From: a virus
Length of the DNA stretch: 37,430 nt
Virus record (IMG/VR): IMGVR_UViG_3300045988_110420
Strand: one strand, 5' to 3'
Below the pieces are notes generated by a model, which was not told where the DNA came from, did no database searches, and saw only the letters and a list, made by a program, of their open reading frames with translations. Positions 1,227-37,430 of the stretch are shown here, one piece after another. The position numbers and the translations under genes were made by a program. Every line of letters begins with the position of its first letter. Within the stretch, counting starts at the first letter, position 1.

Positions 1227-1748
1227 TCAAATGAGCCAAAATCCTTCCTCCTCTCCATGAATGCACTTTCCCATTTCCTCCACAAACTGGCTTTCATATT
1301 CACACATCCAACAGTCATTCACCGGCAATGCCCCATATTTCAACATGCAGAATATCTTGTACTGCTTCAATCCGCTTTCCTCCACCATGCTTTCCATTTC
1401 CGCTTTCCGCTGCTCCGCTTCTTCCAGATCCAGCATGATGTAATTTTTTCCGATCAGGTCGATAAATTCTTCTCTGGTATGTGTTTTCTCGTATTCTCTC
1501 TGACAAATGCACTTCAGCGCCCGATCCAAACCATTCTCCGGATTCGCATGCAGACCGCCCAGCCCTGCCAGATGCTTCTCTGGTACCAGATAGCACCAGA
1601 AACCATTTTTGTCTGAAATCTCTCGTTTCCCACTTCCATGATAGATGTGATGCTTCTGCAAACCATTTTCTCTCCCGGTTACAAAACAACGCTTATCCTT
1701 CCCCGTCAGGATGCTCCATGTGTGGCTCCCCTTCTTTTCCGTTGCCAT
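1227..1748 (-). CDS. Conserved phage protein with His-rich N-terminal module (putative HNH/His-Me-finger-like), 173 aa
   Basis: ATG at 1748 follows GGAGGTG. Motif CFVTG..LQKHHIYHGSGKREISDKNGFWCYLVPEKH...LHANP...EEFIDLIGKNYI resembles a family common in Firmicutes prophages. The function is not verified. Confidence 0.55.
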   Translation of the reverse strand: MATEKKGSHTWSILTGKDKRCFVTGRENGLQKHHIYHGSGKREISDKNGFWCYLVPEKHLAGLGGLHANPENGLDRALKCICQREYEKTHTREEFIDLIGKNYIMLDLEEAEQRKAEMESMVEESGLKQYKIFCMLKYGALPVNDCWMCEYESQFVEEMGKCIHGEEEGFWLI

Positions 1749-2445
1749 AGTCTTCACCTCCGATTCTCACTGCTCTTACATATCTTGTCTTTCCGGTGAT
1801 CTCCGAAAAATACGAAATATCTTCGATGACTTTATAGTTTTTGGGTACTTTTGTCCGCTTTGTTTCCTTTTCCTTGGAAATCAGCGTGACCTTTACTTTC
1901 GGCTTCACCAAATTCCGGCTGCCGCTCCACCTTTTTCCATATTCTTTGTAATTTTCTTTTGTGATGTAAAAGGCAAGCCCCGTATAATCTCCGCCCGGCT
2001 CCAGGATGGAAACCATCACACGACCCAGCCCCCATACCTCTTTCAGTTCCTTCATGGTCAAGTCCATTTTGTTGATGAGCAGATGCACGTGCTCTCTCTT
2101 ATTTTTCCGCTCCACCACATATAAATATTTCAGCTCACTGTATCCCTTCCGCTTCCGCAGCCGTTTCAATCTGCTGATAAAATTTCTGAATAACCGCAGG
2201 GCATTTTCCACATCTACCCTCTCCCGGAACGTCAACGTCAAAAATAAATCCCCTTGCCGGAAATTTGCGTTCACCATTCTTGCACATTTCCTTCTTGCTT
2301 CCAGGCAGTTGTATTCTTCCATTTTTTCCGTTGACAGATTTTCTTTCGCTGCTCTCTCACAGCTCATTCCTCTTTCTCTTGGGGAAAAATATATCTTTTC
2401 TTCGTATACATCCCCCGCCCAAATCCTTTTTAAGTATCTCGGCAT
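1693..2445 (-). CDS. rep: Rolling-circle replication initiator, HUH endonuclease (Rep_1/pC194-like)
   Basis: Motif 1 is FLTLTF, motif 2 (HUH) is EHVHLLI, and motif 3 is the tyrosine region AFYITKENYKEY, all in canonical order and spacing. GAGGTGAAAGG RBS before the ATG at 2445. Confidence 0.75.
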   Translation of the reverse strand: MPRYLKRIWAGDVYEEKIYFSPRERGMSCERAAKENLSTEKMEEYNCLEARRKCARMVNANFRQGDLFLTLTFRERVDVENALRLFRNFISRLKRLRKRKGYSELKYLYVVERKNKREHVHLLINKMDLTMKELKEVWGLGRVMVSILEPGGDYTGLAFYITKENYKEYGKRWSGSRNLVKPKVKVTLISKEKETKRTKVPKNYKVIEDISYFSEITGKTRYVRAVRIGGEDYGNGKEGEPHMEHPDGEG

Positions 2446-2490
2446 CCTTTCACCTCATATTTATGTATCTCTCTATTCCTATCTGTTTAT

Positions 2491-2549
2491 AGGGGTATGC
2501 CCCTAATGTTAATCACATTATCAAGGGTCAAAAGGGACCCCCGTCCCTT
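2491..2549 (-). promoter_or_regulatory. Putative double-strand origin (dso): CTTGATA nick motif flanked by three hairpins
   Basis: The minus strand reads CTTGATA at 2525-2519. Hairpins: AGGGG-tatg-CCCCT (2491-2504), TAATGT-5nt-ACATTA (2504-2520, overlapping the motif) and AAGGGAC-cccc-GTCCCTT (2532-2549). The region lies directly upstream of rep. Confidence 0.5.
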
Positions 2550-2606
2550 GCAAAATCAACCTTTTTTGGTATCATAAAACTGTATCTCGTATTCAATTAT
2601 CTGTGG

Positions 2607-2639
2607 GAAGGACGCTCTCTCTTTTTGAGAACGCCCTTC
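2607..2639 (-). other. 13-bp stem-loop directly after the DUF3846-like gene stop, strand-specific (G-U pairs only on the minus transcript)
   Basis: On the minus strand, gaagggcgttctc / gagagcgtccttc pair perfectly if two G-U wobbles are allowed. The plus-strand equivalent would have A-C mismatches. No U-tract follows the stem. Confidence 0.4.
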
Positions 2640-2644
2640 TTTTT

Positions 2645-2935
2645 TTATGCAAGGATTTCTTCCAGCTGCTCCATCTGCTTTTCTGTCAAATCCCCGAATT
2701 CTTCCCCATTCTCGCCTACCAGAAGAAAATCCCCGTTGATGGTATAAAAATGCGTGTTCGGTTCCAGCTTCAACAACTTCCCTTCTTCGTTGCAGATCAG
2801 CACCACACCCTCCGCAAGTTTCAGCGTTTGGATATATCCGCCCACCGTTTCCTGTAATGCTTTCAGTTCGTTTTTCACTTCCACTCGCCGGATCTCTCCT
2901 CTCACCGGTACCAGCAGTCCTTTGATGTATTCCAT
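2645..2935 (-). CDS. DUF3846-like protein (96 aa)
   Basis: MEYIKGLLVPVRGEIRRVEV...LQETVGGYIQTL...VLICNEEGKLLKLEPN...INGDFLLVGENGEEFGDLTEKQ matches the DUF3846 pattern (VGG...CNEEGKL...G.F...LT). GGAGG RBS before the ATG at 2935. Confidence 0.7.
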   Translation of the reverse strand: MEYIKGLLVPVRGEIRRVEVKNELKALQETVGGYIQTLKLAEGVVLICNEEGKLLKLEPNTHFYTINGDFLLVGENGEEFGDLTEKQMEQLEEILA

Positions 2936-2937
2936 TC

Positions 2938-3285
2938 CTACGCCTCCAATTCCATTTGATTTCCAATGATCTCTACTTTTCCGTCCATCTGTTTCATGTC
3001 TTCTTCTGTCAAGTCCTTGATCATCATGCCCACCATGCGGAACAGCAGCCCTTTTCCATGGATCAGTTTTTTCTCTCCCTCCCATCCGTCGTACATAGGT
3101 CCATCCGGGTTCTTCTGTGCATCGTATGCCAGAAACACTCTCTCACTGATAGGATGCATGGGAACGATGTCCACGCCACCTACTGCCTCAATCTTCGCCG
3201 TCATGTCTAGCATCTTCGGGCTCTGTTTCACTACTCTCTGCCCCTTCTCCGTGATAAAGATCATCTGCACTGATTTCATCATCAT
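2938..3285 (-). CDS. DUF3846-like paralogue (115 aa)
   Basis: GGAAGGAG RBS precedes ATG ATG ATG at 3285. IEAVGGVDIV...LIHGKGLLFRMVG..DLTEEDMKQM has the same architecture as the downstream gene. Confidence 0.6.
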   Translation of the reverse strand: MMMKSVQMIFITEKGQRVVKQSPKMLDMTAKIEAVGGVDIVPMHPISERVFLAYDAQKNPDGPMYDGWEGEKKLIHGKGLLFRMVGMMIKDLTEEDMKQMDGKVEIIGNQMELEA

Positions 3286-3832
3286 ACACTCCTTCCCATC
3301 CTCGTTCCTGTCTGCACTTTCTCCACATGATGTTGACCTTGTCCATAAAATCATCGTTCATGACCACCGGCGAAATGACAGCAACCAGAATCAATCCATC
3401 TTTCACAGCAACCATTCTTCTTCCCTTTTCTCCTCGCAGGAAAAAAGCTAAATACTTGCTGTCCATCTTCCGCACCGGTTCCAGCAGGTCTTCGTCCATC
3501 CACAACACTCCGTCCGGCGCATAGAATGGCGTCAAAAACATTCCATTATAAAATACAGAAATCCCTGCCGGATCTGCCGTCAGCTCCGTTTCCTCCACTC
3601 TGTCCTGCTTTGTCACTCCTTCCGTATCCACCATGTCCTTTTTGCTCCATTTTTCCTTTTGGGTTTCTGTAACCCCCAATAGGTTCAGAAAATCGTCACT
3701 GGTCATTTTCGGCAGCCCTTCCAATCGGTAAACCGCATACCCGTTGCTCATCCATTGCCCACCGTCTAAATCTGTCATGATGAAACAGGCTTTATTTCTT
3801 TTCGCCACTCTGGCAATTTCTGTAAACTTCAT
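3188..3832 (-). CDS. Hypothetical early protein (214 aa) with acidic C-terminal tail
   Basis: ORF track. ATG at 3832. The 3' end overlaps the next gene by 98 nt out of frame. Confidence 0.65.
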   Translation of the reverse strand: MKFTEIARVAKRNKACFIMTDLDGGQWMSNGYAVYRLEGLPKMTSDDFLNLLGVTETQKEKWSKKDMVDTEGVTKQDRVEETELTADPAGISVFYNGMFLTPFYAPDGVLWMDEDLLEPVRKMDSKYLAFFLRGEKGRRMVAVKDGLILVAVISPVVMNDDFMDKVNIMWRKCRQERGWEGVYDDEISADDLYHGEGAESSETEPEDARHDGED

Positions 3833-5419: not shown

Positions 5420-6067
5420 ATGGATATGTCTGAACGTATCAAATCAAGACGTCTTTATTTAGGTCTTACCCAAGAAGAACTTGGTCTTAAACTCGGATTG
5501 CAAAAATCAGCAATCGCAAAATATGAAAATGGACGTGTAGAAAACATCAAACGTAGTGTTATTGCAAAAATGGCAGAAGTTTTGGAATGTTCTCCAGCTT
5601 ATCTCATGGGCTGGTCTGATGAAATCAACCCTGCTCCTGCTCTGGATTTATCCAAATTTGACAATATCTATCCCGTCAAATTAAAAAAATTTCCTTTGCT
5701 TGGCGAGATCGCCTGCGGCAAACCCATCTTTGCCAATGAGGACAGAGAAAGCTATATTTTAGCCGGCTCTGACATCCACGCCGACTTCTGCCTGCGTGCC
5801 AAAGGTGACAGCATGATAAATGCCCGTATTCTTGATGGTGACATCGTTTTCATCCGCAAGCAGGATATGGTGGACAATGGCGAAATCGCAGCTGTGGCTA
5901 TCGGTGATGATGTAACACTGAAACGTGTGGTCTATTACCCAGAACAGAACCTGCTGATCCTAAAGGCGGAAAATTCCAAATACCAGGATATGATTTATGC
6001 ACAGGATCAGCTGGATCAAGTGTATATTCTTGGTAAAGCCATTGCTTTTCAGTCAGATGTGAAATAA
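5420..6067 (+). CDS. CI/LexA-like repressor: XRE HTH + peptidase S24 autocleavage domain
   Basis: N-terminal LTQEELGLKLGLQKSAIAKYENG HTH. C-terminal GDSM (Ser nucleophile) and TLKRV (Lys) S24 motifs. 215 aa. Confidence 0.9.
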   Translation: MDMSERIKSRRLYLGLTQEELGLKLGLQKSAIAKYENGRVENIKRSVIAKMAEVLECSPAYLMGWSDEINPAPALDLSKFDNIYPVKLKKFPLLGEIACGKPIFANEDRESYILAGSDIHADFCLRAKGDSMINARILDGDIVFIRKQDMVDNGEIAAVAIGDDVTLKRVVYYPEQNLLILKAENSKYQDMIYAQDQLDQVYILGKAIAFQSDVK

Positions 6068-6739: not shown

Positions 6740-7162
6740 ATGAAATTAAATTCTAGGGCAATTTTAGTTACAACTTCTCTCATTGCTATCTCCAGCATTT
6801 TTTATAATGTTTTTCTTTTTGGACAAGTTTCAAATCTTCATAATGAATTTGATAGCGTAGAAAAACAATATAAAGAGCAATTAGAAATTTCAAATAATTA
6901 TAAACAAGAAATAAATAATCTTGAATTTAAGATGAATATAATAGATGATGAATATGAATTCTATCATAAATACGCAGTAATAACCACAACTACTGGTTAC
7001 CGTTATCATAAGTACGGTTGCTATCACTTAAATAATGATAATGGTTTTTATATCTTTAATATAGAAAATGCCACTTATCAAGGATATACCCCCTGTTTGG
7101 ACTGCCTTGGTTCTGGCTCTACCGAAGAAATAAAAGATAAACTGAAACGTGAACTTTATTAA
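6740..7162 (+). CDS. Membrane-anchored coiled-coil protein with C-terminal Cys/His zinc motif, AT-rich moron gene 2 (140 aa)
   Basis: GAAAGGTGA RBS, ATG 4 nt after the gene 1 stop. TM anchor RAILVTTSLIAISSIFYNVFLFG. C-terminal YRYHKYGCYHL...GYTPCLDC. Confidence 0.7.
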   Translation: MKLNSRAILVTTSLIAISSIFYNVFLFGQVSNLHNEFDSVEKQYKEQLEISNNYKQEINNLEFKMNIIDDEYEFYHKYAVITTTTGYRYHKYGCYHLNNDNGFYIFNIENATYQGYTPCLDCLGSGSTEEIKDKLKRELY

Positions 7163-7208
7163 AAATCTCAACTCAAAAATGGCGACCTTCCAAAAGGAGG
7201 TCGAAACT

Positions 7209-8255
7209 ATGGCAAAAGCAAAAAAACTGCCGTCCGGCAACTGGTCTGTGCAGGCTTATAGCCACACCGTCACCATAAACGGCAAACAAAAACGGGTGTA
7301 TGAGCGTTTTACCGCTCCCACCCGTAAAGAGGCTGAGTATCTGGCAGCAGAATTCCAAATGAATAAATCCCGCAAAAAATCTATGGAAACCATGACAGTT
7401 GCTCAAGCCATTGAAAGTTATATTGACAGCAAATCGAATATTCTTTCTCCATCTACGATCAAAAGCTATCGTAGCTTACAGAGAAATCATTACCATGACA
7501 TCGGTAAAATTCCTTTACAAAAACTTACCAGACAAATGGTTCAGCGTGAGTTTAATTTATATGCGGCTTCCCTTTCTCCAAAGACCTGCCGCAATCTTCA
7601 TGGTTTGCTTTCCGCAGCCCTGGAAATGTATCACCCTGATTTTCGTTTGAAAACAAATATGCCCAAAAAAACAAAGAACGAAATTCATATTCCCACAGAA
7701 GCAGAACTTCAGTGTCTTCTCTCCCGATCCCGTGGAACGCCTCTCTTTCTTCCTATCATTCTGGCGTTTTCCATGGGGCTTCGTCGGGGAGAAATTTGCG
7801 GTCTGCGCTGGAAAGATATTAACCTTGAAAAACATACTATTCATGTCCATACTTCACTGGTGCAGAATGAAAAAAAAGAATGGGTTGAAAAACCTCCAAA
7901 GACCTATGCAGGAAATCGCATCCTCGATATTCCTCCGTTTGTCTATGATGAACTAGAAAAACTATACCCGGAACAGAAGAATAGTCGTATCACAGATTTA
8001 ATGCCGGATAATATTACCAATATGTTTCCTGGTTTGCTTCGTCGCTCCGGTCTGCGCCATTTCCGCTTCCATGATTTACGCCATTATTACGCATCCATCA
8101 TGCTTGCCAATAATGTTCCCGATAAATATGCAATGAAACGTATGGGACATGCAACCAATTCCATGCTAAAGAATGTATATCAGCACATAATTACTCAAAA
8201 AGATCAAGAAGTTACCGTTGTTATGAACAACTTTTTTTCTGGACATTTCCAATAA
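7209..8255 (+). CDS. int: Tyrosine recombinase (phage integrase) with AP2-like N-terminal arm-binding domain
   Basis: AAAAGGAGG RBS before the ATG at 7209. GLRRGEICGLRW (Arg), HDLRHYYAS (His-x-x-Arg), GHATNSMLKNVYQH (Tyr). N-terminal KKLPSGNWSVQAY...NGKQKR...TRKEAE. Confidence 0.9.
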   Translation: MAKAKKLPSGNWSVQAYSHTVTINGKQKRVYERFTAPTRKEAEYLAAEFQMNKSRKKSMETMTVAQAIESYIDSKSNILSPSTIKSYRSLQRNHYHDIGKIPLQKLTRQMVQREFNLYAASLSPKTCRNLHGLLSAALEMYHPDFRLKTNMPKKTKNEIHIPTEAELQCLLSRSRGTPLFLPIILAFSMGLRRGEICGLRWKDINLEKHTIHVHTSLVQNEKKEWVEKPPKTYAGNRILDIPPFVYDELEKLYPEQKNSRITDLMPDNITNMFPGLLRRSGLRHFRFHDLRHYYASIMLANNVPDKYAMKRMGHATNSMLKNVYQHIITQKDQEVTVVMNNFFSGHFQ

Positions 8256-9204: not shown

Positions 9205-9388
9205 TGCCCTCCTCCTTTCCCTTCTGGTACTGGGTACCAAAATAGAAAGCAATCACAACACTGAAAATGGTCAGGAACTGTTCCCCACTGATATGCCCTG
9301 TAATAGACAGGTACGCAAATACCAATGTCAAAACCAGTGTCACAATACTTTTCACTGTCAAAAGATTCTGAATATTCACTTCTTTCAT
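9191..9388 (-). CDS. Holin (65 aa, two TM segments)
   Basis: IVTLVLTLVFAYLSI and FLTIFSVVIAFYFG, with a charged C-terminus. Overlaps the endolysin start. ATGA overlap with the upstream gene. Confidence 0.8.
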   Translation of the reverse strand: MKEVNIQNLLTVKSIVTLVLTLVFAYLSITGHISGEQFLTIFSVVIAFYFGTQYQKGKEEGNGTD

Positions 9389-9891
9389 TTTTTCACCGTC
9401 CAATCTTCTGCAAAAATATCTGTGATGGAAGGTACCCACATGGCATGGGAACCGCCCACAGTATTGATCTGCAAATACGGTTCGCATCTAAACAGGTCTC
9501 CTTCTTTCATCCCCCATGCTTCCGCTGTCTGCTTATTACATGGAATACCCTCTGGATATCCCTTCTGCATCACTACATACAGCCCTTTTCCGTTCCAGCC
9601 GGGTCTTGTCATAGGAATACCCTTTTTCAGCATATGCAGCGCGTGTCCAAAGCTCATTCTTGCCACACCGCCCAAAATCGGTGTATTCGTATCCACTGCC
9701 GGCGTGAAATCCACTGCTGCCATGTTATCCAGTGTATATTCCTTCATTTTTGTATCAAACAGGTCCAGCACTTCGCCTTCTTTCGTGTGCATCATGATAG
9801 TACCGTTTTCAAACGCCCAGTATCCGCCCCAATGGGGACGTTTTACCTTTCCTCCATTTTTCATAAATGCAAGTGCCTGTCTAAAATTCAT
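9385..9891 (-). CDS. Tandem DUF2829 (Tad2-like) domain protein (168 aa)
   Basis: Two repeats of the M.F..AL..(M/L)K.G...R..W.G signature. The second ends in WVPSITDIFAEDWTV. GAGGAGG RBS before the ATG at 9891. Confidence 0.7.
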   Translation of the reverse strand: MNFRQALAFMKNGGKVKRPHWGGYWAFENGTIMMHTKEGEVLDLFDTKMKEYTLDNMAAVDFTPAVDTNTPILGGVARMSFGHALHMLKKGIPMTRPGWNGKGLYVVMQKGYPEGIPCNKQTAEAWGMKEGDLFRCEPYLQINTVGGSHAMWVPSITDIFAEDWTVKK

Positions 9892-9902
9892 GTTCATCCT
9901 CC

Positions 9903-10223
9903 TCACTGCAATTCAAACAATTTTTTCCCATACTGCACCGCACATTCATGCTCGATCTTGCATCCTCTCGCCTCTGACCATCCTTTTGCAAAACATACGA
10001 TGTCCGCTTTCGACATCATCGTAAGAGAACGTCCCAAGCACCATAAAGCCATATCAGCGTTTTTTGGTGGATCTTCAGCAATATAACTGTCGATCACTGC
10101 CACTTCTTCCTTCAGAATTTCTTTTGCGCTGATAACCGCATTTTCTCTTTCTTTTCTGATTTCTTCTTCTGTTTTTCCTTTCATTGGCTGCGAAATAAAT
10201 AACTTCTTCTTTTCCATTCCCAT
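9903..10223 (-). CDS. DUF4406-like (nucleoside 2-deoxyribosyltransferase-like) protein (106 aa)
   Basis: KLFISQPMKGKTEEEI...LWCLGRSLTMMSKADIVCFAKGWSEARGCKIEHECAVQYG matches the DUF4406 pattern as I remember it. Confidence 0.65.
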   Translation of the reverse strand: MGMEKKKLFISQPMKGKTEEEIRKERENAVISAKEILKEEVAVIDSYIAEDPPKNADMALWCLGRSLTMMSKADIVCFAKGWSEARGCKIEHECAVQYGKKLFELQ

Positions 10224-10982: not shown

Positions 10983-13900
10983 TTACTGTGGCGCCTTTTC
11001 CAGTGTTTCTCTTTTTCCGCCCAATCTGTAAAACTCGTCTGCCGCTCTCTGCATCCGCTGACTGTCTCCGGCTTCCTTGGCTTTCCAATATTCCGATTTC
11101 AGTCGGCTCCTCATACTGCTTCTAATATCCTTGTCCTCTTTCCCCGCAGCATTCAGAATAGACCACATCTTTTCATAGTCTGCCATGTTGCCGTTCATAT
11201 AGGCATTGAACAGCAAAGCATAGTCCGCACTTTCTACTTCTCCTTCCTCCTTCCAGTAGTCCTTTGTAATGGTTTCAAATGTTTCTTCATCCTCCGCAGG
11301 CGGTTTCGTCAGGCTTTCCACAGCACTTTCAATGTTTGCCATGAAATACCCCTTCTTTGCCAACGCTTCCACGTTTCTGGTGTAATCATCCACCCTGCCT
11401 TCGTTGTATGCTTTTGCCGCTTCCATGGCTTCCGGTTCTTCCTTGATGGCTTTCACCTGTTCTGTTTTGATTTTATTGTCAATCTTTTCATTGGAAATGC
11501 CGCCGTTGACCATGTCGTTGTAAATCCGTGTGGCGATCTGTTCGTTTCCGCTCATCTTTGCTTCCAGCATCATTTTCACATACATGTTAATATTCTTTTC
11601 ACTGCCCACATCGTAGGTCAGCTTCTGGTTTTCATACTGTGCATCCAGTCCCAGTGTGTAATTGACGATGGTGTTTTTGATTGCCAGAATATCCCGTTTT
11701 GCGGAATTGATGGGGATACCCGTTGCCTTTGACAGGCTCCCGGCAGCGTCCATCAAAACAGCGTTCAATGTATAGTTGCTTTCTCCTGACATGTACCGCA
11801 TGAGATTTTTCCCGGATTTTACCAGATCATTGAGCCAACTAATATCCGTCCGCTGTACGGTATATCCCTGGATCACAGAGAAAATATCCCTCATGTACGG
11901 GATATATCCCAACGGGTTGAAACTGTTCCCCAGGTTTGAACCAATGGCAGCCAGAATATAGTCGCTGACACTTTCCGCTTCCGTAAAATCCCCTCGAAAC
12001 GCCTGCAGCCATTTTTCCAGCAGTGTTTCATCGTCGTCATCGTCCCTGAGCATATCCACCAGCCCAGCCGCAGCCGCTACACATACACCATTTGCAACCA
12101 GCGTCATAAATGTTCTGACAACCTTCTTCCGGTTCTCCGGCGTGTTGTCTTTGATCACTGCCACCATACTGTTTCGCATCATGTTGTATGTCTTTGTTGG
12201 TTCACTCATGAATGATGTTGCCATCTGTGAAAACAGGCTCTGGCTCCGCATCATCTGATTTCTATGCAGAATACTGTCCACCACCTGTGTTCCGTCGATG
12301 ATTTCCGAAAACCGCTTCCCAACGGTCTCATAATACCGGTTGCCTGTCAGTTCTGGATGTTTTTTCTTCACTTCCAGCTCTGCCGCTCTCCAAATGCGTC
12401 CCCATGTCAGCTTGTCCATGACACCTGCGGCAATCATGGATTTTTCCAGAAAACTTTCGTAGAAATTTTGCCCGACGAGCAATTCTTTCATGGTGCGCCC
12501 TACGTTCATTTCATAATTTCCCCATTCTTTCCATTGAGCGATTGGCGCATACTCATATACCTTTTCAAAGTCTGTCTTGCTTGGTACCAGAGCCCCCATC
12601 AAATACCCTACGCCGATTTCATCCGCCGCTCTCAGGTAACTCACTGGCTGCTGGATGATGACACGCAGGTTTGCGCCTACGCTGGCAATCTTCATATTCC
12701 GCAGGAAAATCCGTGGCAGCCGTTCCACATCTTCTTTTACCGCCGGATTGTTCAGCCGTTCCATCAAATCCCGTACATATTTGTCGCCAGCCGGACCCAT
12801 GACCCGCTGCATGGTTTCTTTGACACTTCGGTTTTCGCCGAATTTCTTTCCGTCTACCACACGCACCATTTCTCGGTAGTTCATAAATTTGTTCAGGTCT
12901 GAAAGCGCCGGCACAAAAGCGTTATAACTGCTCATCTGGTCTATGTGTCTGACATAAGCATCGAAAATGTTTTCCAGAATGATGGGGTTTTTCGCTTCTC
13001 TGTTTGTCTGCTTGGTAATTCCCATTGTTTGCAGGGTACTGTTCTTTTCCCCTCTTGCGCCGTACATGGTATTGATGTAGTTTTCATCGGTCACAATGGG
13101 GAAATAGTTGGTTTCCGTAAATTTTTTGTACCCCAGCATATTCATGGTGACTTCGTTTCCCCAGCTTGCCACGCTTTCCAAATATCCTTGGATCTCCAAA
13201 GCCGCTTTTTTCTGTTCCTCTGTCAGATTGCTCATAAGTTTTGTCACGTCTGCCGCTGTCACTTCCACCGGCTCCGTATTTTTGACGATCTTTCTCTGTC
13301 CTCTGACTTTATGCACCACAGGTTCCCCTTTGATGCCGCCGCCAAAGATATGCCCTCTTGCCTGTGTTCTGCGCATCAAGCAGTACAGGCTCATGATCTG
13401 CGCATCTGTCAGCAGGATTTTTCCGCCGCTCAAAGTGTATTCCTTCGGTTCCATTTCTCCCCATTCACGGATTTTCTTTTTGTCGACAGTCTTCTGCATA
13501 AATTCCGACGCTTCTTTCACATGGAGAATTTTTCTGTCAAATCCCTCTCGCAGCCCTCTGTAAATGGTGTCGTGTACGGTTTTCCCCATTTCCTTGAAGA
13601 AACTTTCTGTGTCTAACATTTGCACATTCATCATGTCAGAAAGTACCCGCAGCCTGCTGTCTGGATTCTTTGTTTTTTTGTTCTCCACATCCTCCATGTA
13701 TGCGTTCCCAATAGTGGATATTTTTTCCCCGTTTTTGATGGAAACCATTCTGTTTGCGTTTCTGACCAAATGGGATACGCTTCGGATCACCACAGATAGC
13801 TGTCTCATTTCTGTGGGACCCAGCTCGGATACCTTCACGCCATCACCTACACGATCCGCCAGACTTTCCAGCATCGCCTGTACGTTTTCATCTTCTTCCG

Positions 13901-16900
13901 CATAAAGCATGGTGTTTTCCGCAGTCATGGCTTGATAGTCTTTTATCATCCGCCGAATGTCTGTTGGCATGATATTCAGTTCTGGATCATCGAATTTCAT
14001 TTTTTCCAGGAAATTCCGCACGCCTTCCATCATGCTTTCCTGCACATGGTATTGGTCTGTGGGACGTTCCACCCATCTTTTCAGCAGCGCCGCTTCTTTC
14101 TCGATGATGTTTTTGTACTTGGCATATTCTGCCCGGTCCCGTCTTTCCTTGTCCCTTGCTTTCAATTTTTCGTAAATGGCACGACGCTGTTTCACAAGTG
14201 CCCTTCCTTCGTGCATTGCCGCAGCCAGTCTGGCATCTTCCAGTTTCTTTTTCTGGTCTTCCTTTGCCTGCTGTAATTTTTCATCGTATCTTTCCTTTAG
14301 ATCTTTCCGCAGATTTTCCCTTGCGGCTCTTGCTCTGGCTTTTTCTTTTTCCAGTTTCTTTTCGTATTTGTCTGCAAATGTTGGCTTCTGCAGCTCGATG
14401 TCAAAATACATATCCCACAGGTCATAAGCCGCATCCATGGCGTATTCGTCCAGATTCATGCCGTAAGGGTTTTCATAGATGGGCTGTAAACTTTCCACCA
14501 CTTCCAGAATATCCATTACGGCATCCACCTGTGTGCTCACACGCTCCACATCCAAAAGTTCCGGGTATTTTTCTGCCATTTCCTGATAAAACACATCTGC
14601 ATAAATGCCGCCCTGTCTGCTCAGGTTGATTTTTCCGAAATTTTCCTTTCTGACAGTGTTGTATCCGCCATAATAGTCAAATTCCTCCGCCATATCCTCT
14701 GTCACTTTGATCTTTGTCTTGCGTACATCGTTCTTGAAGTCCTTGTATGCGTCGGAAAGGTCTGTGTTCAAAACCTTGCTTTCGGATAATGCGTCATACG
14801 CCAGCTTCTGCAATGCGCCCATTACCTTCTGGAAATCCACTCTGTCCCCGGCATTTGCCACGTAATCCGCCAAAGCAACAAATTTTTCTGTGAAATCATC
14901 CACATCATATTCGCTGTCGTGTGCTTTCAGCCATTTTCTAACGGCTTTCTTTGCGCTCACAGGATCATGTACGGCGTATTTCGTAATTTCAAACTGTCTG
15001 CGCAGGGCTTCATTTGCTTCTTTCAGTGCTTCATTTTCTTCCACCAAAGCGTTATAGGCTTCTTCACGGATAGAAAACCGCACACCTTCCACACGATTGA
15101 GCTGTTGCACTCTGCTTTCTTTGCTTCCCGCTTCATATTCCAGCACTTGTGGAATTTTGTTTTCCACTGCCTTTCGCAGATCCACCTCAAGATCATCAGG
15201 TACTACCGCCGCTGCCACTTCCGCAAATTCCACCACACGTTCCGGCTTTGCCTCAAAGAAATCTGTTGGCATTTCCTTAATTTCTTCCAAAACTCTCGCT
15301 GTCTGTTCCGCCAGTTCCATGGAAATGGGATATCCTGCTTTTTTAAGATTCTGCTGGATCTGCTGGGCACTTGGTACTCCCTTTACTTCCTCCGCCATGT
15401 TCTGAATCTGTTCACCAATATCCTCCATTTCATAAACCTCATTGATGCCAGTTTGGCTGCCTGTATCATAAATTTCTTCCAACACACCAAAAAGCCGCTG
15501 GTTCATTTCTTCTCGCAGTGCTTCGAATTCTTCCTTGGGCAAATGCTCCAGTTTTTCTCTTGCTTCCTTGATCTCACCTAAGGAAACAAATCTGTTTGCC
15601 ATGGCTGCCCGCATGGTGTTTTCCCCCATAAACCCTTGGGCATTTTTTCCGCTTTTGGTCTGTGCCTGCATAGTCCGCACCAGTTCTTCCAGAAACGCTC
15701 TTGTTTTGCCGTATTCCTCCTTATCCAGCATAGGAAACATAGGTGTCCAAGCGTCTGCGTCATACACCTTGTTTCTTTCGTCTGCCGGATCAATGGTGTC
15801 TTTCCGAAACACCAGAGAAATTTCCCCAAACTCCTCCGCCGTGGCATCGCTTTTTGTAATGGCAATACTCGGCATGGGAATCCCCTGCAAGTCTAAGAGT
15901 TTGCGCAGTTTCTCACCATTCAGGTTATGAACAGCAATCAGGTCTTTCGTTTCTTCTATTGGTTCTTTCAAGGAAAATCTATTTTTTGATTCTCTTTCTT
16001 TTCCATTGTCTTCTTTTTTTGACTGTGTTATATTTTCCATAAGAGGCAGATCGTTTTTATTTTTATAGGAGAGACGAACTTCGGTTCCAGGGACTTTGGG
16101 ATCTGCCTCTAAATTTATGTCTGAAAAAACTTGTTTTCTATTTTTTATGCTTGTCTTTTCCCCTCTCTGCATTTCCCCGGCTTTCTTCATTTCCTCCGCC
16201 AGCATTTTTGCCAGTTTCTCTGTTTCCTTGATGTCCTTTCTGATTTCCTCCCCGAATGAGGAAAAACGCCCGTCATTGACCAGCCCTTTCAATGTTTCCA
16301 GCAGATTTTCCAGAAATTCTTTGATTTTTTCCAGTACAGAAGGATTTGTCTGATGCATTTCTGTCACAAACGCCCGCAGGCTCTTTTCGTCCCCTGCAAT
16401 TTCTGCGAAAGCATCCGCTGTCATTTCTTCCAGGATCACATCATAGCCCGCTTCCTGTCCGGCTTCTCGATACGCCTCCCCGTATCTTTTTTCATAGCTC
16501 TTGATATATGATTCCGTGTCCATGCCTTTCATGGCAGCCGCCGCAGAAAATACCGCCTGCCGCATCCGGTCATATCCTTCCGGGTTCGCTTCTCTCAAAT
16601 AGTGGGTTGCTTCATGGAATAAGGTTCCCGCAAACTGTCCACTGTTCAGCGCAATGGTAACACGCCCTTTGTTGTTTTCGTAATATCCACGTCTGTCCTG
16701 TGGCAGTTCATCTACCAGCACCACTTCCAACTCTGCCACTCGGCTCACCAACTCCGCAAGACTTCTCTGTTCCTTTGTCACAGCATCCGTTTCCAGAAAC
16801 ACGCCGGCAGTCTGTCCCATTTTTCCTGTGCCTTTCATCCTTGCTTCCAGGTCTGTTTTCCGGTCGTTCACCCCTGCCAGATATGCCGCGCTCAAAAGCC

Positions 16901-18734
16901 CCTTGTCTGCCACAATGGTTTCCGCCGTCTGTTTGATGTCGCTTTCTTTTACCCCCGTAAGTCCCGCTGTGTAATATGTCTGAAAAGCAGGAATAAAAGA
17001 TGTGCCCCCTCTCCGTTCCGCTTCTTCGTTGACCAACTTTTGCCCTTCGGTGTAGTAGTACTTTTCTCCAAAATCCCGCAGGGCTTTGTTTTGCTGCGTC
17101 ACTTCCGGCACATTTTCTCTGTTTACCATCACATTTCCCTGTTCTGGCAACATATTTTCTCTGTTTGATAACACATTTCCTTGTTCTGGCAACATATTTT
17201 CTCTTTCCGGTAACACATTCCCTTGTTCTGGCAACATATTTTCTCTTTCCGGTAACACATTCCCCTGTTCCTTCAGCATCGTTTCTGGCTGTGTCCCTTC
17301 CGGCACTTCTGCCTTTCCTTGGCTTCTCATGGCATTTGTTCTCTGTGTCACTTCGTTTCCCGCATTTGTCATAGCGTCCCTTGCTGTTTCCACCGGATTT
17401 CCAGCCATTTCCAAAGTGTTTCTTCCGGTCATACGGCTCAGTCCGCCAATACCTCCGGCAATGACACCGCCGCTGGCAGCACCCACAGCCCCACTATATC
17501 CAACCTGCTTGATACCCTCCATGAGTGCTGTTTTCACAGCTTCGCTTTCCGTTGCACCGTTTTCCATGGCGGTCTGTGCAATCTGTTTCATCTGGCTGTT
17601 ATCTCCCATAATGAGCGTATCCGCCAGAAGGTTTGCAATCTCAGAAGTGGCTTCTTCTGCACCTTCAGACGCTGCCTGCGGCAAAAGACTTTTCAAAAAT
17701 GTGGAAACTGCACCTTTGTTTTTTGTGATTTTTCCCAGTTCAAATAAACGATCATACCCCAATTTCTCTGTGATGGCTTCTGCCGCACCTCCTGCCAGAC
17801 CATACATGACTGCTTCGTCTGTTGTGCCGCCTCTTTCCAGTGCTTCCTTTGTGTTTCCTGCTGCCGCACCTGCCGCCATGACATATGGTGTCAAAGGTCC
17901 CAGTGTCGCTGCCTGTGTGCCCCAGTCGAACACCGCAAGCCCAGCCTCTTTGGCAAATTTCTCTGCACCGGTACTGTCTCCCATCAGTCCTTCTGCCAAT
18001 CCTTCATTCATGTTCACACCGCCCATGAGTGGGTGATAAGGGTCAACGGGCTTGTCCGCTCCTTCCATTGCCGCCGCGTAAACTGCCCCGGCTGCCTGTC
18101 CAATGTTCCCAACTGCACGGGCATACAGCGCCGCCGCTGTGCTTTCCTCCGCCAGCTTCTTTGCATCCTCTCTTTTCTGCATGGCTGCTCTCTGGTTCAC
18201 ATCCATTTCCAGTGCATCCAGATATTCCTGTGCCTTTTCCACCTGTCCTCTGTCACGGTAATACTTATACACTGCCGCTTCCCGGTCCGTCATGTAATCA
18301 TATTTTGTCCGTACTTCATTACGTTTCAGTGTTGGATTGACAGTACCGCCGCCCCCGGTATCCGGCAGGATCAGCTTACTCACATCCCCCTTTGGCGGGA
18401 TCACTGCCGGCAGTTTTGCCCCATTTTCCAAAACCTTTGCTTTGTTTCTGCTTTCCGTCAATGCCTGACTGTATGTTTTTGTAGTATTTGTTTTCCGTTT
18501 CAGCACAGGATTTTCCCGTACATTCCCAAAAGAAATGATGGGGTTTACGGTCCCCCCTGCCACCTTTGGTGCCAGATCAGATGCCTTCACTCTCTTGTAG
18601 TTCTCCCAAACTGTGTTGTAACTGTCATTTCCATTGTCCAGTCTTACCCCGGTTTTTTCATCGTATCTTGTAGTATCAGCACCTTTTGCCCTTGTTTCTT
18701 CTGCTTTTTTTCTTAAAAAATCACTTGCTCCCAC
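10983..18734 (-). CDS. Giant polyvalent virion-associated protein (2,583 aa) with HExxH zincin-like module
   Basis: Single uninterrupted ORF. GTG start 7 nt after GGAGGG. Gly/Ala-rich hydrophobic N-terminal third, 14-aa tandem repeats, LFHEATHYL motif (codons at 16602-16616), and RFS(L/I)(K/R)E module boundaries. Confidence 0.9.
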   Translation of the reverse strand: MGASDFLRKKAEETRAKGADTTRYDEKTGVRLDNGNDSYNTVWENYKRVKASDLAPKVAGGTVNPIISFGNVRENPVLKRKTNTTKTYSQALTESRNKAKVLENGAKLPAVIPPKGDVSKLILPDTGGGGTVNPTLKRNEVRTKYDYMTDREAAVYKYYRDRGQVEKAQEYLDALEMDVNQRAAMQKREDAKKLAEESTAAALYARAVGNIGQAAGAVYAAAMEGADKPVDPYHPLMGGVNMNEGLAEGLMGDSTGAEKFAKEAGLAVFDWGTQAATLGPLTPYVMAAGAAAGNTKEALERGGTTDEAVMYGLAGGAAEAITEKLGYDRLFELGKITKNKGAVSTFLKSLLPQAASEGAEEATSEIANLLADTLIMGDNSQMKQIAQTAMENGATESEAVKTALMEGIKQVGYSGAVGAASGGVIAGGIGGLSRMTGRNTLEMAGNPVETARDAMTNAGNEVTQRTNAMRSQGKAEVPEGTQPETMLKEQGNVLPERENMLPEQGNVLPERENMLPEQGNVLSNRENMLPEQGNVMVNRENVPEVTQQNKALRDFGEKYYYTEGQKLVNEEAERRGGTSFIPAFQTYYTAGLTGVKESDIKQTAETIVADKGLLSAAYLAGVNDRKTDLEARMKGTGKMGQTAGVFLETDAVTKEQRSLAELVSRVAELEVVLVDELPQDRRGYYENNKGRVTIALNSGQFAGTLFHEATHYLREANPEGYDRMRQAVFSAAAAMKGMDTESYIKSYEKRYGEAYREAGQEAGYDVILEEMTADAFAEIAGDEKSLRAFVTEMHQTNPSVLEKIKEFLENLLETLKGLVNDGRFSSFGEEIRKDIKETEKLAKMLAEEMKKAGEMQRGEKTSIKNRKQVFSDINLEADPKVPGTEVRLSYKNKNDLPLMENITQSKKEDNGKERESKNRFSLKEPIEETKDLIAVHNLNGEKLRKLLDLQGIPMPSIAITKSDATAEEFGEISLVFRKDTIDPADERNKVYDADAWTPMFPMLDKEEYGKTRAFLEELVRTMQAQTKSGKNAQGFMGENTMRAAMANRFVSLGEIKEAREKLEHLPKEEFEALREEMNQRLFGVLEEIYDTGSQTGINEVYEMEDIGEQIQNMAEEVKGVPSAQQIQQNLKKAGYPISMELAEQTARVLEEIKEMPTDFFEAKPERVVEFAEVAAAVVPDDLEVDLRKAVENKIPQVLEYEAGSKESRVQQLNRVEGVRFSIREEAYNALVEENEALKEANEALRRQFEITKYAVHDPVSAKKAVRKWLKAHDSEYDVDDFTEKFVALADYVANAGDRVDFQKVMGALQKLAYDALSESKVLNTDLSDAYKDFKNDVRKTKIKVTEDMAEEFDYYGGYNTVRKENFGKINLSRQGGIYADVFYQEMAEKYPELLDVERVSTQVDAVMDILEVVESLQPIYENPYGMNLDEYAMDAAYDLWDMYFDIELQKPTFADKYEKKLEKEKARARAARENLRKDLKERYDEKLQQAKEDQKKKLEDARLAAAMHEGRALVKQRRAIYEKLKARDKERRDRAEYAKYKNIIEKEAALLKRWVERPTDQYHVQESMMEGVRNFLEKMKFDDPELNIMPTDIRRMIKDYQAMTAENTMLYAEEDENVQAMLESLADRVGDGVKVSELGPTEMRQLSVVIRSVSHLVRNANRMVSIKNGEKISTIGNAYMEDVENKKTKNPDSRLRVLSDMMNVQMLDTESFFKEMGKTVHDTIYRGLREGFDRKILHVKEASEFMQKTVDKKKIREWGEMEPKEYTLSGGKILLTDAQIMSLYCLMRRTQARGHIFGGGIKGEPVVHKVRGQRKIVKNTEPVEVTAADVTKLMSNLTEEQKKAALEIQGYLESVASWGNEVTMNMLGYKKFTETNYFPIVTDENYINTMYGARGEKNSTLQTMGITKQTNREAKNPIILENIFDAYVRHIDQMSSYNAFVPALSDLNKFMNYREMVRVVDGKKFGENRSVKETMQRVMGPAGDKYVRDLMERLNNPAVKEDVERLPRIFLRNMKIASVGANLRVIIQQPVSYLRAADEIGVGYLMGALVPSKTDFEKVYEYAPIAQWKEWGNYEMNVGRTMKELLVGQNFYESFLEKSMIAAGVMDKLTWGRIWRAAELEVKKKHPELTGNRYYETVGKRFSEIIDGTQVVDSILHRNQMMRSQSLFSQMATSFMSEPTKTYNMMRNSMVAVIKDNTPENRKKVVRTFMTLVANGVCVAAAAGLVDMLRDDDDDETLLEKWLQAFRGDFTEAESVSDYILAAIGSNLGNSFNPLGYIPYMRDIFSVIQGYTVQRTDISWLNDLVKSGKNLMRYMSGESNYTLNAVLMDAAGSLSKATGIPINSAKRDILAIKNTIVNYTLGLDAQYENQKLTYDVGSEKNINMYVKMMLEAKMSGNEQIATRIYNDMVNGGISNEKIDNKIKTEQVKAIKEEPEAMEAAKAYNEGRVDDYTRNVEALAKKGYFMANIESAVESLTKPPAEDEETFETITKDYWKEEGEVESADYALLFNAYMNGNMADYEKMWSILNAAGKEDKDIRSSMRSRLKSEYWKAKEAGDSQRMQRAADEFYRLGGKRETLEKAPQ
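17109..17282 (-). repeat. In-frame 42-bp tandem repeat x about 4 (ENMLPEQGNVLPER units) inside the giant gene
   Basis: The DNA and the protein (KEQGNVLPERENMLPEQGNVLPERENMLPEQGNVLSNRENMLPEQGNVMVNREN) show the same periodicity. Confidence 0.9.
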
Positions 18735-35456: not shown

Positions 35457-35861
35457 TTAAAACGGCAGATCATCATCCTCGATATCGTCTATGGGATAAA
35501 ACCCATCTTCTGCCGGTTCTCTCCTTGGCTCCTGGTTCTCGTTTTTGCTTCCCGCAAAGTGCTGTTCCTCCACCACCACTTCCGTACTCCATCTTTTGTT
35601 TCCGTCCTTGTCCGTCCAATTCCGTACCTGCAGCCGCCCAACGATTCCAACCATCTGTCCTTTGGAAAAATATTTCTCCGCAAAGGTGGCAGACTTCCCG
35701 AATGTGACACATGAGATAAAATCCGCTTCCGCTTCGCCTTCCTTCTTCCATCTTCGGTTGACTGCCAGCGTATACCGCCCTACTGCAACCGGATTTTCTC
35801 CTTCGGCATACCGTATCTCTGGATTTTTGGTCAGCCTGCCCATCAATACCACTTTATTCAT
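35457..35861 (-). CDS. ssb: Single-stranded DNA-binding protein
   Basis: MNKVVLMGRLTKNPEIRY...FISCVTFGKSAEFAEKYFSKGQMVGIVGRLQVRNW OB-fold signature and the acidic C-terminal tip DDIEDDDLPF. Confidence 0.95.
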   Translation of the reverse strand: MNKVVLMGRLTKNPEIRYAEGENPVAVGRYTLAVNRRWKKEGEAEADFISCVTFGKSATFAEKYFSKGQMVGIVGRLQVRNWTDKDGNKRWSTEVVVEEQHFAGSKNENQEPRREPAEDGFYPIDDIEDDDLPF

Positions 35862-36317: not shown

Positions 36318-36575
36318 CTATGCATCCTCCCCGTACTTTTCCTCGTATTCCTCCTGAGAAATAAACCGGCAGTCCTTTTCCTCCACAAACATTCCCAATC
36401 CTGTGAACCACAGAACATCTTTGATGGTCACTTTCTGTCTGATTTCCTCCATTTTTTCTTCGTACTCATCCTCTGGCACCATGTTTCCGCCAATGCTCAA
36501 ACCCGCTGCATCTGGATTCCCGTTTTCATCCTCCGCAAGCCCCATGATTTCCACATAGATTTTCAATTCTTTCAT
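36318..36575 (-). CDS. Hypothetical acidic protein (85 aa)
   Basis: AGGAGGAG RBS before the ATG at 36575. Confidence 0.6.
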   Translation of the reverse strand: MKELKIYVEIMGLAEDENGNPDAAGLSIGGNMVPEDEYEEKMEEIRQKVTIKDVLWFTGLGMFVEEKDCRFISQEEYEEKYGEDA

Positions 36576-36585
36576 ACCGCTCCTC

Positions 36586-36936
36586 CTAATTTTCCAGATC
36601 AATCGCTTCACCTATACAGTATGTCGCTCTCTTTTCTGCTGCCCTGTTGAACGCTTCCACAAATGCCTTTGTTTCTTTTTCTTCGATCAGTTCATAATAC
36701 ATATCATCTTCCCAATCTTCGTACTGATCATTTCCAAGCATTTCCGTCAACCTGGTGATCAATTCTCTTTCATTGATCTGTACGGTATCTTTTACGGCTG
36801 TGTAAAATTCCAATGAAAATCCTTCGTTATAGGCAATGCAGCTTTCGATTTCCCCTGCATCAATGACCTCTGTCATTCCTTCTTTGTATTTGACAATAAC
36901 TTTCTCGTCATCCTTTAACTCGCATAATTTCTTCAT
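36586..36936 (-). CDS. Hypothetical acidic protein (116 aa)
   Basis: GAGGTGAGG RBS before the ATG at 36936. Confidence 0.6.
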   Translation of the reverse strand: MKKLCELKDDEKVIVKYKEGMTEVIDAGEIESCIAYNEGFSLEFYTAVKDTVQINERELITRLTEMLGNDQYEDWEDDMYYELIEEKETKAFVEAFNRAAEKRATYCIGEAIDLEN

Positions 36937-36966
36937 TTTCCTCACCTCGAGAAATTATTTTCTTTT

Positions 36967-37371
36967 TCAATCCATTCCCTTTAATCTGATGGATGGCAGA
37001 TCCATCTTCGCTCCGCATTTTTTACAATAGTCGTATTCTGCTATCTCACCAAATCCGCAGTTACTACACTCTGCCCATGCCCCTTGGCATGTCGTAAACC
37101 CATCTTCTTTCAAATCATGCCAAATCCATCTCCCATGGATGACCGGAAAACAATCCGCTTCCATTGTCACTTCAAATTCATTTTTTAACCAATCAAATAC
37201 ATAGTGCCGGTTGTAGCTTCCAAAACCATTCATCCATTCTTTTTTCTCCGTATCGTAGTACGCGATAGAATAATATGGATAGTCATTCTTTCCCTCTACT
37301 ATGATTTTTGCATATGGTGTTTTTATCTTTTCTTTTTTTTTGCTTTCAACCGCTTTTCTTGTTTTTCCCAT
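36967..37371 (-). CDS. Hypothetical protein with C-terminal zinc ribbon (134 aa)
   Basis: CSNCGF...YCKKCGAKM at the C-terminus. The start lies inside the terminal repeat and abuts the stop of ORF 43..375 across the circular junction. Confidence 0.6.
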   Translation of the reverse strand: MGKTRKAVESKKKEKIKTPYAKIIVEGKNDYPYYSIAYYDTEKKEWMNGFGSYNRHYVFDWLKNEFEVTMEADCFPVIHGRWIWHDLKEDGFTTCQGAWAECSNCGFGEIAEYDYCKKCGAKMDLPSIRLKGMD

Positions 37372-37430
37372 CCTTACCACTTTCCCTCCATCAACTCTTT
37401 ATAACTGATCCCCCCAGCCAATCCCGGCGA
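37332..37430. repeat. Terminal overlap, copy B (identical to 1-99)
   Basis: Exact 99-nt match to the window start. Non-redundant length is 37,331 bp. Confidence 0.9.

Follow-up and report, generated by a model that had tools for sequence, protein, structure and literature searches.

A putative HUH rolling-circle initiator and a conserved origin-like element upstream of its gene in a temperate tailed phage of Anaerotignum

In this study, we analyzed a viral DNA of 37,430 nucleotides (IMG/VR record IMGVR_UViG_3300045988_110420; the whole stretch is called the window in the following), which belongs to a temperate tailed phage whose host is the gut bacterium Anaerotignum. Quite probably, this phage carries a replication module consisting of an initiator of the HUH endonuclease superfamily (Rep; gene rep at 1693–2445, minus strand), a double-strand origin (dso) directly upstream of rep, and a phage single-stranded DNA-binding protein (SSB), with rolling-circle replication being started by Rep. 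The module is supported by an origin-like element that stays in register while Rep falls to 30% identity, by the linkage of rep with the SSB gene, and by the fact that no other replisome genes were detected in profile scans of the phage. The pairing of a CTTGATA motif with this Rep probably starts replication; it is not exceptional, as Rep belongs to a large phage family that is already annotated.

The rep gene codes for 250 amino acids without a helicase domain. It starts with ATG and is preceded by the Shine-Dalgarno sequence GAGGTG at 2456–2451. As stated in a first-pass annotation of this DNA, the open reading frame (ORF) contains the three HUH motifs in the right order, namely motif 1 L67FLTLTF73 (F68LTLT72), motif 2 E118HVHLLI124, and motif 3 A158FYITKENYKEY169. 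H119, H121, and Y160 occur without exception in 27 Rep homologues with 43–91% identity, and conservation is at least 90% for L71, T72, K163, and E164; the second tyrosine Y167 (in 'ENY') varies. From this conservation pattern, the active site is expected to consist of the HxH motif plus Y160-x-x-K163-E164. In this motif 3 (Y160-I-T-K-E164, i.e. YxxKE), the order of tyrosine and glutamate is opposite to that in pC194. The single conserved tyrosine together with the at least 90% conserved E164 four residues further on suggests a pC194-like chemistry using one tyrosine plus a carboxylate, and not a phiX174-like flip-flop of two tyrosines. Conservation is highest at the N-terminus of the protein (residues 1–20; MPRYxKKIWAGDVYE) with invariant M1, P2, Y4, G11, D12, V13, Y14, and E15. 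The structure prediction shows this part as a beta-hairpin with good confidence; it may contribute to origin recognition or provide Y4 or Y14 as a second tyrosine.

An AlphaFold model of Rep reached a predicted local distance difference test (pLDDT) score of 79. The best viral fold matches were 'ORF2/G2P' and 'gene A' Reps of metagenomic siphoviruses, which aligned over the full length with a template modeling (TM) score of 0.7, followed by Reps of microviruses; matches to annotated Reps in the viral library reached E = 1.7e-17. Among the PDB structures, the model gave weak matches to HUH proteins (adeno-associated virus Rep, RepB, and circovirus Rep) with E-values of 6e-3 to 0.1, none being ≤1e-3, and the Rep profile found no relatives among the PDB sequences.

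For family assignment, Rep was compared with Pfam, where PF23343 REP_ORF2-G2P was the sole significant family (49.1 bits at a cut-off of 27.8; E = 7.3e-13; residues 67–164). PF23343 was also carried by 120 of 120 Rep homologues among the matches listed. In PHROG, Rep matched 3584 'replication initiation protein' (8e-57) and 3419 'rolling circle DNA replication initiation' (1e-11), and in NCBIfam no family was found for it. The proposed HUH membership is thus borne out by a hidden Markov model (HMM) match above cut-off, though not the proposed pC194/phiX174 type: Rep_1, Rep_2 (pMV158, PF01719), Rep_trans (pT181, PF02486), and Phage_GPA were absent from the Pfam scan of Rep even at E ≤ 1. Rep_1 identity was further rejected on the reversed order of motif 3, and Phage_GPA identity on the glutamate at the second position of motif 3 and the unconserved Y167. 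An hhalign comparison with pC194 RepA gave a weak alignment (E = 6.7e-4, probability 27%) covering motifs 1 and 2 with FLTLT and HxH correctly aligned, and the comparison with phiX174 gpA was not significant (E = 0.066). By its motifs and profile matches, Rep is a predicted HUH superfamily initiator that would work like those of pC194 and phiX174 but falls outside both Rep_1 and Phage_GPA. Its own family is PF23343 REP_ORF2-G2P (PHROG 3584), to which Reps of inoviruses, of Spiroplasma phages, and of metagenomic siphoviruses belong.

The intergenic gap upstream of rep has a length of 199 nt (2446–2644). On the rep strand it contains the heptamer CTTGATA (2519–2525, minus strand; context CCCTTGATAATG) 74 nt before the rep ATG, which is the predicted nick motif; by analogy to phiX174 and pC194, the cut would be located between G2522 and A2521. 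The heptamer is part of a conserved origin-like core at 2496–2533 on the minus strand (TTTTGACC-CTTGATAA-TGTG-ATTAAC-ATTAG-GGGCAT), which is the candidate dso. For its analysis, regions upstream of rep homologues were taken from IMG/VR contigs, GTDB genomes, and metagenome assemblies, and a model of about 40 nt, R1, was made from 41 loci with Reps sharing no more than 60% identity with that of the window; the window and its close relatives were left out. When both strands of the 37 kb were scanned with R1, a single match was obtained, which is the core at 2496–2533 on the minus strand (22.3 bits, E = 4.5e-6; runner-up E = 0.55). R1 also matched 15 of 27 loci outside the model-building set, all upstream of rep and on the rep strand, and it matched directly upstream of rep in the isolated tailed phages phiSM101, Arawn, PhiS63, and Latilactobacillus phage TMW 1.1381 P1.

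In 58 non-redundant loci with Reps of 30–95% identity, the same layout was found in fixed register: a GC-rich hairpin, a T-run, about 6 nt, C-T-Y-G-W-T-A-A, 4 nt, ATTA(A/T)C, 5 nt, and GAC(C/A). CTTGATA is the commonest form of the motif in these loci. On this comparative evidence, the CTTGATA region is a conserved strand-specific cis-element adjoining rep.

Together with the gap and the motif, the first-pass annotation had described three perfect hairpins, and all of these were found as described: 2532–2538/2543–2549 with 7 bp, 2504–2509/2515–2520 with 6 bp, and 2490–2495/2500–2505 with 6 bp. As parts of an origin, they fared differently, since only the first one recurs in relatives. This GC-rich hairpin (2532–2549, minus strand) consists of AAGGGAC and GTCCCTT around GGGG and is followed by TTTT. 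Its position is kept in diverged loci with other stems (AGGGAC/GTCCCT, AGGGTT/AACCCT, GGGGC/GCCCC, and GCGC/GCGC). For the 30 nt preceding the motif, the folding energy is −8.3 kcal/mol compared to −3.5 kcal/mol for shuffles, and it is −5 kcal/mol or below in 35 of 42 loci. The hairpin is regarded as a candidate Rep-binding or extrusion element and/or a candidate sense-strand terminator or attenuator. Hairpins 2 and 3 (2504–2520 and 2490–2505, minus strand) are present in the window and unconserved; in 90%-identical relatives (loci L003 and L005–L009), they are replaced by one stem enclosing the motif, ATGGCTC...GAGCCAT. A common second helix around the nick motif was considered and rejected, as the registers differ by lineage (ATGGCTC/GAGCCAT vs. 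GTCCAT/ATGGAC).

The CTTG/ATA sequence is the nick motif of phiX174/pC194-type origins (PMC10378824, PMC5037232), as the first-pass annotation had noted, and it was read in both sequence records. In the phiX174 record, the rep_origin feature is placed at the A of CAACTTG/ATA (in full CAACTTG/ATATTAATAACACTATAGACCAC). In the pC194 record, the dso reads TCTTATCTTGATAATAAGGGTAAC (wider context ...AAAGGATTTGAGCGTAGCGAAAAATCCTTTTCTTTCTTATCTTGATAATAAGGGTAACTATTGCC...) and precedes repA by 196 nt on the same strand. With pC194/pUB110 (Rep_1, PF01446), the window shares CTTGATAAT-N5-TAAC with TAAC ten bases after CTTG, a hairpin and T-rich tract immediately on the 5′ side of the motif, and, for its candidate dso, the position upstream of rep on the same strand. 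On the protein level, the FLTLT and HxHhhI motifs and the use of a single tyrosine with a single glutamate in motif 3 are common to both. The host is a Firmicute in both cases. The systems differ in that motif 3 of pC194 is ExxKY (E-M-A-K-Y; E210/Y214) instead of YxxKE, in that the profile alignment over motifs 1 and 2 is weak, and in that a 3-kb plasmid is compared with a 37-kb tailed phage replicon. With phiX174 gpA (Microviridae; Phage_GPA, PF05840), the CTTG/ATA core is shared, and three blocks, CTTGATA, (A)ATAAC, and GACCA(C/T), can be recognized by eye, although the block spacing is 21 nt vs. 23 nt. The resemblance of microvirus Reps to the HUH core of the Rep model also fits, while the phiX174 origin is located inside gene A and gpA has two tyrosines (YVAKY; YxxKY).

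Upstream of the hairpin, further conserved blocks ('TCAAG' and 'TATTATAC') can be read as a sigma-A promoter on the strand opposite rep. In the window, this promoter-like site is located at 2548–2575 on the plus strand, with the −35 hexamer TTGCAA, a spacer of 16 nt, and the TG-extended −10 hexamer TATCAT, and points away from the origin. Its position is conserved in the family; many relatives show 10–12 of 12 consensus matches with a 17-nt spacer, and in most high-match loci the −35 hexamer lies 20–33 nt from the nick motif. The mean best score was 9.2 compared to 7.4 for the sense strand and shuffles, and a score of at least 10 was reached in 21 of 42 loci compared to 1 of 42. A strong terminator follows 25–45 nt past the promoter, with a T-run on that strand only. 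Such terminators are conserved in diverged loci, and the predicted RNAs mostly have lengths of 41–84 nt. In the window, a countertranscript of about 65 nt is predicted (2582–2646, plus strand), which would fold into a single-stranded 5′ region of 25 nt and a terminator stem at about 2605–2641 with a U-run at 2640–2646. The unit of promoter and terminator (2548–2646) is also present in the loci L025, L099, L100, L112, L117, L054, L061, L055, and others. With Rfam, nothing was found at gathering thresholds in the whole window and nothing credible at E ≤ 10 in 2380–2720.

The 5′ region of the predicted RNA is complementary to the Shine-Dalgarno sequence, the ATG, and the first codons of rep in 9 of 9 loci with Reps at least 42% identical (z-scores of −2.5 to −5.2 against shuffles). 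Each lineage has its own sequences, and still the cognate pair of RNA and rep was the best one in 6 of 7 comparisons, with a mean of −24.5 kcal/mol vs. −16.4 kcal/mol. There is no overlap between rep and the RNA gene, which lies beyond the origin at a distance of about 130 nt upstream; the RNA would pair via an upstream, diverged copy of the 5′ end of rep (copy ACGAGATAC, rep start GCCGAGATAC). Going by this complementarity, the RNA probably limits Rep output by pairing with the rep ribosome-binding site, and the unit looks like a plasmid-type countertranscript control of rep placed beyond the origin. RNAII of pMV158 and RNAI/II of pT181, which serve in the copy control of these rolling-circle plasmids, are short countertranscripts with constitutive promoters. 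Common to these and the predicted phage unit are a short, terminator-ended RNA complementary to the rep translation start beside the origin, and a hairpin with U-tract upstream of rep; unlike in the plasmids, the RNA gene of the phage does not overlap its target. Two further roles would be compatible with that of a countertranscript. First, the RNA could be a primer resembling that of a single-strand origin, because it lies just upstream of the dso and would be templated by the displaced strand; a passage in PMC5037232, quoting Khan 2005, places single-strand origins normally at such a position. Second, transcription from the outward promoter could open the origin via negative supercoiling behind the polymerase. 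On a more tentative level, it is possible that tailed phages with this Rep family use a full plasmid-style cassette, made up of a CTTG/ATA dso, a Rep with reversed tyrosine and glutamate, and a non-overlapping RNA, transcribed away from the origin, that silences rep translation by pairing with the ribosome-binding site through this diverged copy, with promoter firing perhaps helping to open the origin. If so, antisense control would be arranged in a way not described so far, and this in a large part of a family that has thousands of clusters, most of them from phages of gut Firmicutes.

For the detection of other replication genes, most ORFs of at least 72 amino acids on the strand indicated by coding bias were scanned with Pfam and PHROG. 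In agreement with the first-pass annotation, which had recognized SSB only, no polymerase, primase, helicase, or replisome organiser was detected in them. The SSB gene (35457–35861, minus strand; PF00436, 3.4e-31; PHROG 44) codes for the only other recognizable replication protein. The window is a circular assembly with an exact terminal overlap of 99 bp (1–99 = 37332–37430) and hence a true length of 37,331 bp. On the circular map, the SSB gene is located downstream of rep in the same direction of transcription, so that both are part of one continuous early/middle region, and the order rep, small ORFs, SSB is kept in relatives.

Several observations speak against a rolling-circle start by Rep at this element or against parts of it, and they were weighed together with other explanations. 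The heptamer occurs 7 times in the window compared to 3.68 expected copies, a number reached in 4 of 100 shuffles, so that its frequency alone is near expectation and not significantly enriched, and in some clades the motif is replaced by the variants CTCGATA, CTAGATA, GTCCATA, or CTTGTTC. Along with the two unconserved hairpins, the copy number would fit a chance occurrence of motif and hairpins in an AT-rich spacer. Such an occurrence is extremely improbable and in practice refuted by the independent match of R1 and by the positional conservation in dozens of diverged loci.

The element might also serve mainly for the control of transcription, as a terminator of the early operon, an outward promoter, and an operator for Rep or another regulator, with the true nick being located elsewhere, e.g. 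inside rep as in P2 and phiX174. The conserved hairpin with TTTT resembles an intrinsic terminator and could terminate read-through before rep, the strong conserved promoter abuts on it, and a sense-strand promoter for rep was not found. In addition, R1 recognized only the core of the phiX174 and pC194 origins (1.9 and 2.2 bits, not significant). As R1 fails beyond the core, we claim a nick motif and a layout shared with the known origins, as read from the sequences, and not homology of the origins. We nevertheless regard a mainly transcriptional role as unlikely, because the best-conserved block (C-T-Y-G-W-T-A-A, N4, ATTAAC, N5, GAC) lies downstream of terminator and promoter, fits no sigma-A hexamer pair at legal spacing, and contains on the rep strand, as in pC194, the exact nick heptamer of two experimentally defined origins. 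For the antisense unit, the signal of pairing between RNA and rep was not seen in 11 loci with Reps of at most 40% identity, which is a further difference to the countertranscript control of plasmids.

Finally, Rep might be a captured plasmid or inovirus gene that does not drive bulk replication and has a side function such as plasmid maintenance or nicking for recombination or transfer, while lytic replication would depend on host initiation or an unrecognized phage protein. About 20 ORFs, many of them early ones, are without annotation and could hide a replication protein, so that the absence of replisome genes holds at HMM sensitivity only. They include early ORFs at 2938–3354 and 36318–37380 and the conserved neighbor at 3188–3832, for which the AlphaFold model (pLDDT 41) was unusable and no Pfam match was found. 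The inovirus bajarodino 41 (L125; 5.4 kb, with a Zot gene) has a Rep that is 30% identical to that of the window, and no 40-nt element was found in it with R1 at E ≤ 1; the Rep family is thus common to filamentous single-stranded DNA phages and tailed double-stranded DNA phages. Moreover, in the episomal Clostridium phage phiSM101 (L124; 463–2570 and 5986–6729), a separate 'plasmid replication protein' and a protein for partition accompany the HUH Rep and its origin-like element. Two replication systems are thereby present in one genome, and Rep is not necessarily the sole system in every carrier. A captured gene with a side function is nonetheless quite unlikely, since Rep, the origin-like element, and SSB occur together in the early region of many phage contigs and prophages of 20–47 kb, no other initiator was found in the window, and the catalytic residues are invariant.

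Rolling-circle replication started by Rep is therefore the preferred explanation, and it would proceed as follows. After induction or infection, the genome would be present as a supercoiled circle, in which Rep would recognize the conserved element of about 40 nt at 2496–2533 on the minus strand. The rep-sense strand would be cut, most likely at CTTG/ATA, and Y160 would become linked to the 5′ phosphate, as in phiX174 and pC194. The 3′-OH end would then be extended by DNA polymerase III together with a PcrA/UvrD-type helicase, both supplied by the host, along the direction of nearly all transcription. The displaced strand would be coated by the phage SSB, and the complementary strand would be made by the host primosome. 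The products, either concatemers or double-stranded circles, would feed the terminase, and Rep output would probably be limited by pairing of the RNA of about 65 nt with the ribosome-binding site of rep. The match of the large terminase subunit to Terminase_6N (PF03237, T4-like type) and the circular, permutable assembly fit packaging from concatemers. The GC skew on the plus strand is uniformly negative; as a possible sign of unidirectional replication, it is confounded by the location of nearly all genes on one strand.

The best functional analogue of the phage Rep is the gene A protein of P2 and 186. P2, a tailed phage of about 33 kb, is likewise temperate and has an integrase; it starts replication with an HUH nickase and otherwise uses helicase, primase, and polymerase of its host. 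Double-stranded DNA phages without a helicase often encode initiators of rolling-circle replication (RCR) such as P2 gpA (PMC4889955), and HUH initiators of temperate tailed phages are textbook knowledge (PMC4889955, PMC6668415). Unlike the window, P2 has a Rep of another family (Phage_GPA type with two tyrosines), an origin within the gene, and a Gram-negative host, and no sequence similarity between the P2/186 gene A protein and the window Rep was detected in this analysis. The first-pass annotation had proposed that the genome replicates like an oversized RCR plasmid. The HUH initiator of the rolling-circle type stands, whereas free single-stranded circles as in plasmids are conjecture: a P2-like rolling circle with coupled lagging-strand synthesis is at least as likely and, for 37 kb, seems more likely. 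Calling this replication mode unusual for a tailed temperate phage was an overstatement in view of the P2 gpA precedent, about 5,600 Rep clusters, and the isolated phages that are already annotated.

The Rep family comprises 5,638 clusters at 50% identity (E ≤ 1e-3). Homologues occur in temperate phages that have been isolated, namely phiSM101, PhiS63, and Arawn, as well as in Latilactobacillus and Terrisporobacter phages, and those of isolated phages already bear the annotation 'replication initiation protein'. A 58% identical relative is named 'rolling circle replication-associated protein' at NCBI. In the literature searched, no description was found of the origin or its control for PF23343 members of tailed phages, nor of the 40-nt origin-like element, the reversed tyrosine/glutamate motif, or the adjacent antisense unit, which is not proof of absence. 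The module would provide a concrete candidate for origin and initiator in a very large group of gut Firmicute phages including phiSM101, PhiS63, and Arawn. P2-style host-dependent initiation of rolling-circle replication would then be common in Gram-positive temperate phages, and the origins of phage genomes of 30–40 kb would be linked with those of 3-kb plasmids and 5-kb single-stranded DNA phages. The 40-nt element together with Rep might be useful as a marker for origin annotation and might add a new specificity to the HUH tags; shuttle vectors for Anaerotignum and related Clostridia could also be built on it. Through the predicted antisense RNA, the control of phage replication would become accessible in a new way, and this RNA is the part most worth an experiment.

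Next to rep, two neighboring ORFs recur in relatives. An ORF of 176 amino acids (1227–1757, minus strand) overlaps the end of rep and matches PHROG 7566 at 6e-26; it has no Pfam match, contains a C-x-x-G...HHIxHG motif, and keeps its position in relatives. Close upstream of rep, the ORF at 3188–3832 (minus strand; PHROG 24518) codes for a protein of 190–214 amino acids conserved in relatives down to about 40% identity, with counterparts at 3138–3782 in L010, 3192–3767 in L013, and 2900–3475 in L014. Its product is a candidate accessory replication protein.

The further gene content is that of a temperate tailed phage, with small and large terminase subunits, portal, major head protein, collagen-like tail fiber, internal virion protein, a giant protein of 2,583 amino acids, and an amidase. 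Markers of the temperate lifestyle are an S24 repressor with helix-turn-helix (HTH) domain (5420–6067, plus strand) and a tyrosine integrase (7149–8255, plus strand), the latter in line with the integrase reported before. Besides these two, nearly all genes are located on the minus strand. With respect to the host, rep genes of 95% and 86% identity were found in assemblies of Ca. A. merdipullorum and A. lactatifermentans. A megablast search with 25 kb of the window against GenBank phages gave no match, and thus no close DNA relative is present there.

Three other regions were noticed. The giant protein is encoded by a single ORF (10983–18734, minus strand; PHROG 22978 at 1e-273) between the lysis and tail genes, and its residues 918–1134 form a PBECR5 'phage-Barnase-EndoU-ColicinE5/D-RelE-like nuclease' domain; it may be virion-borne or ejected. 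Near the lysis genes, two adjoining genes (9385–9906 and 9903–10223, both minus strand) include one with a Tad2-like (Thoeris anti-defence 2) domain (PF11195, 4e-27), whose neighbor is nucleoside 2-deoxyribosyltransferase-like (PHROG 355, DUF4406), and the two likely represent a counter-defence pair. Two genes downstream of rep, a PAPS-reductase-like/PP-loop protein is encoded at 387–1157 on the minus strand (PHROG 424, 3e-37). Its gene occupies the slot where relatives have DNA methyltransferases, and the protein may be a DNA-modification enzyme.

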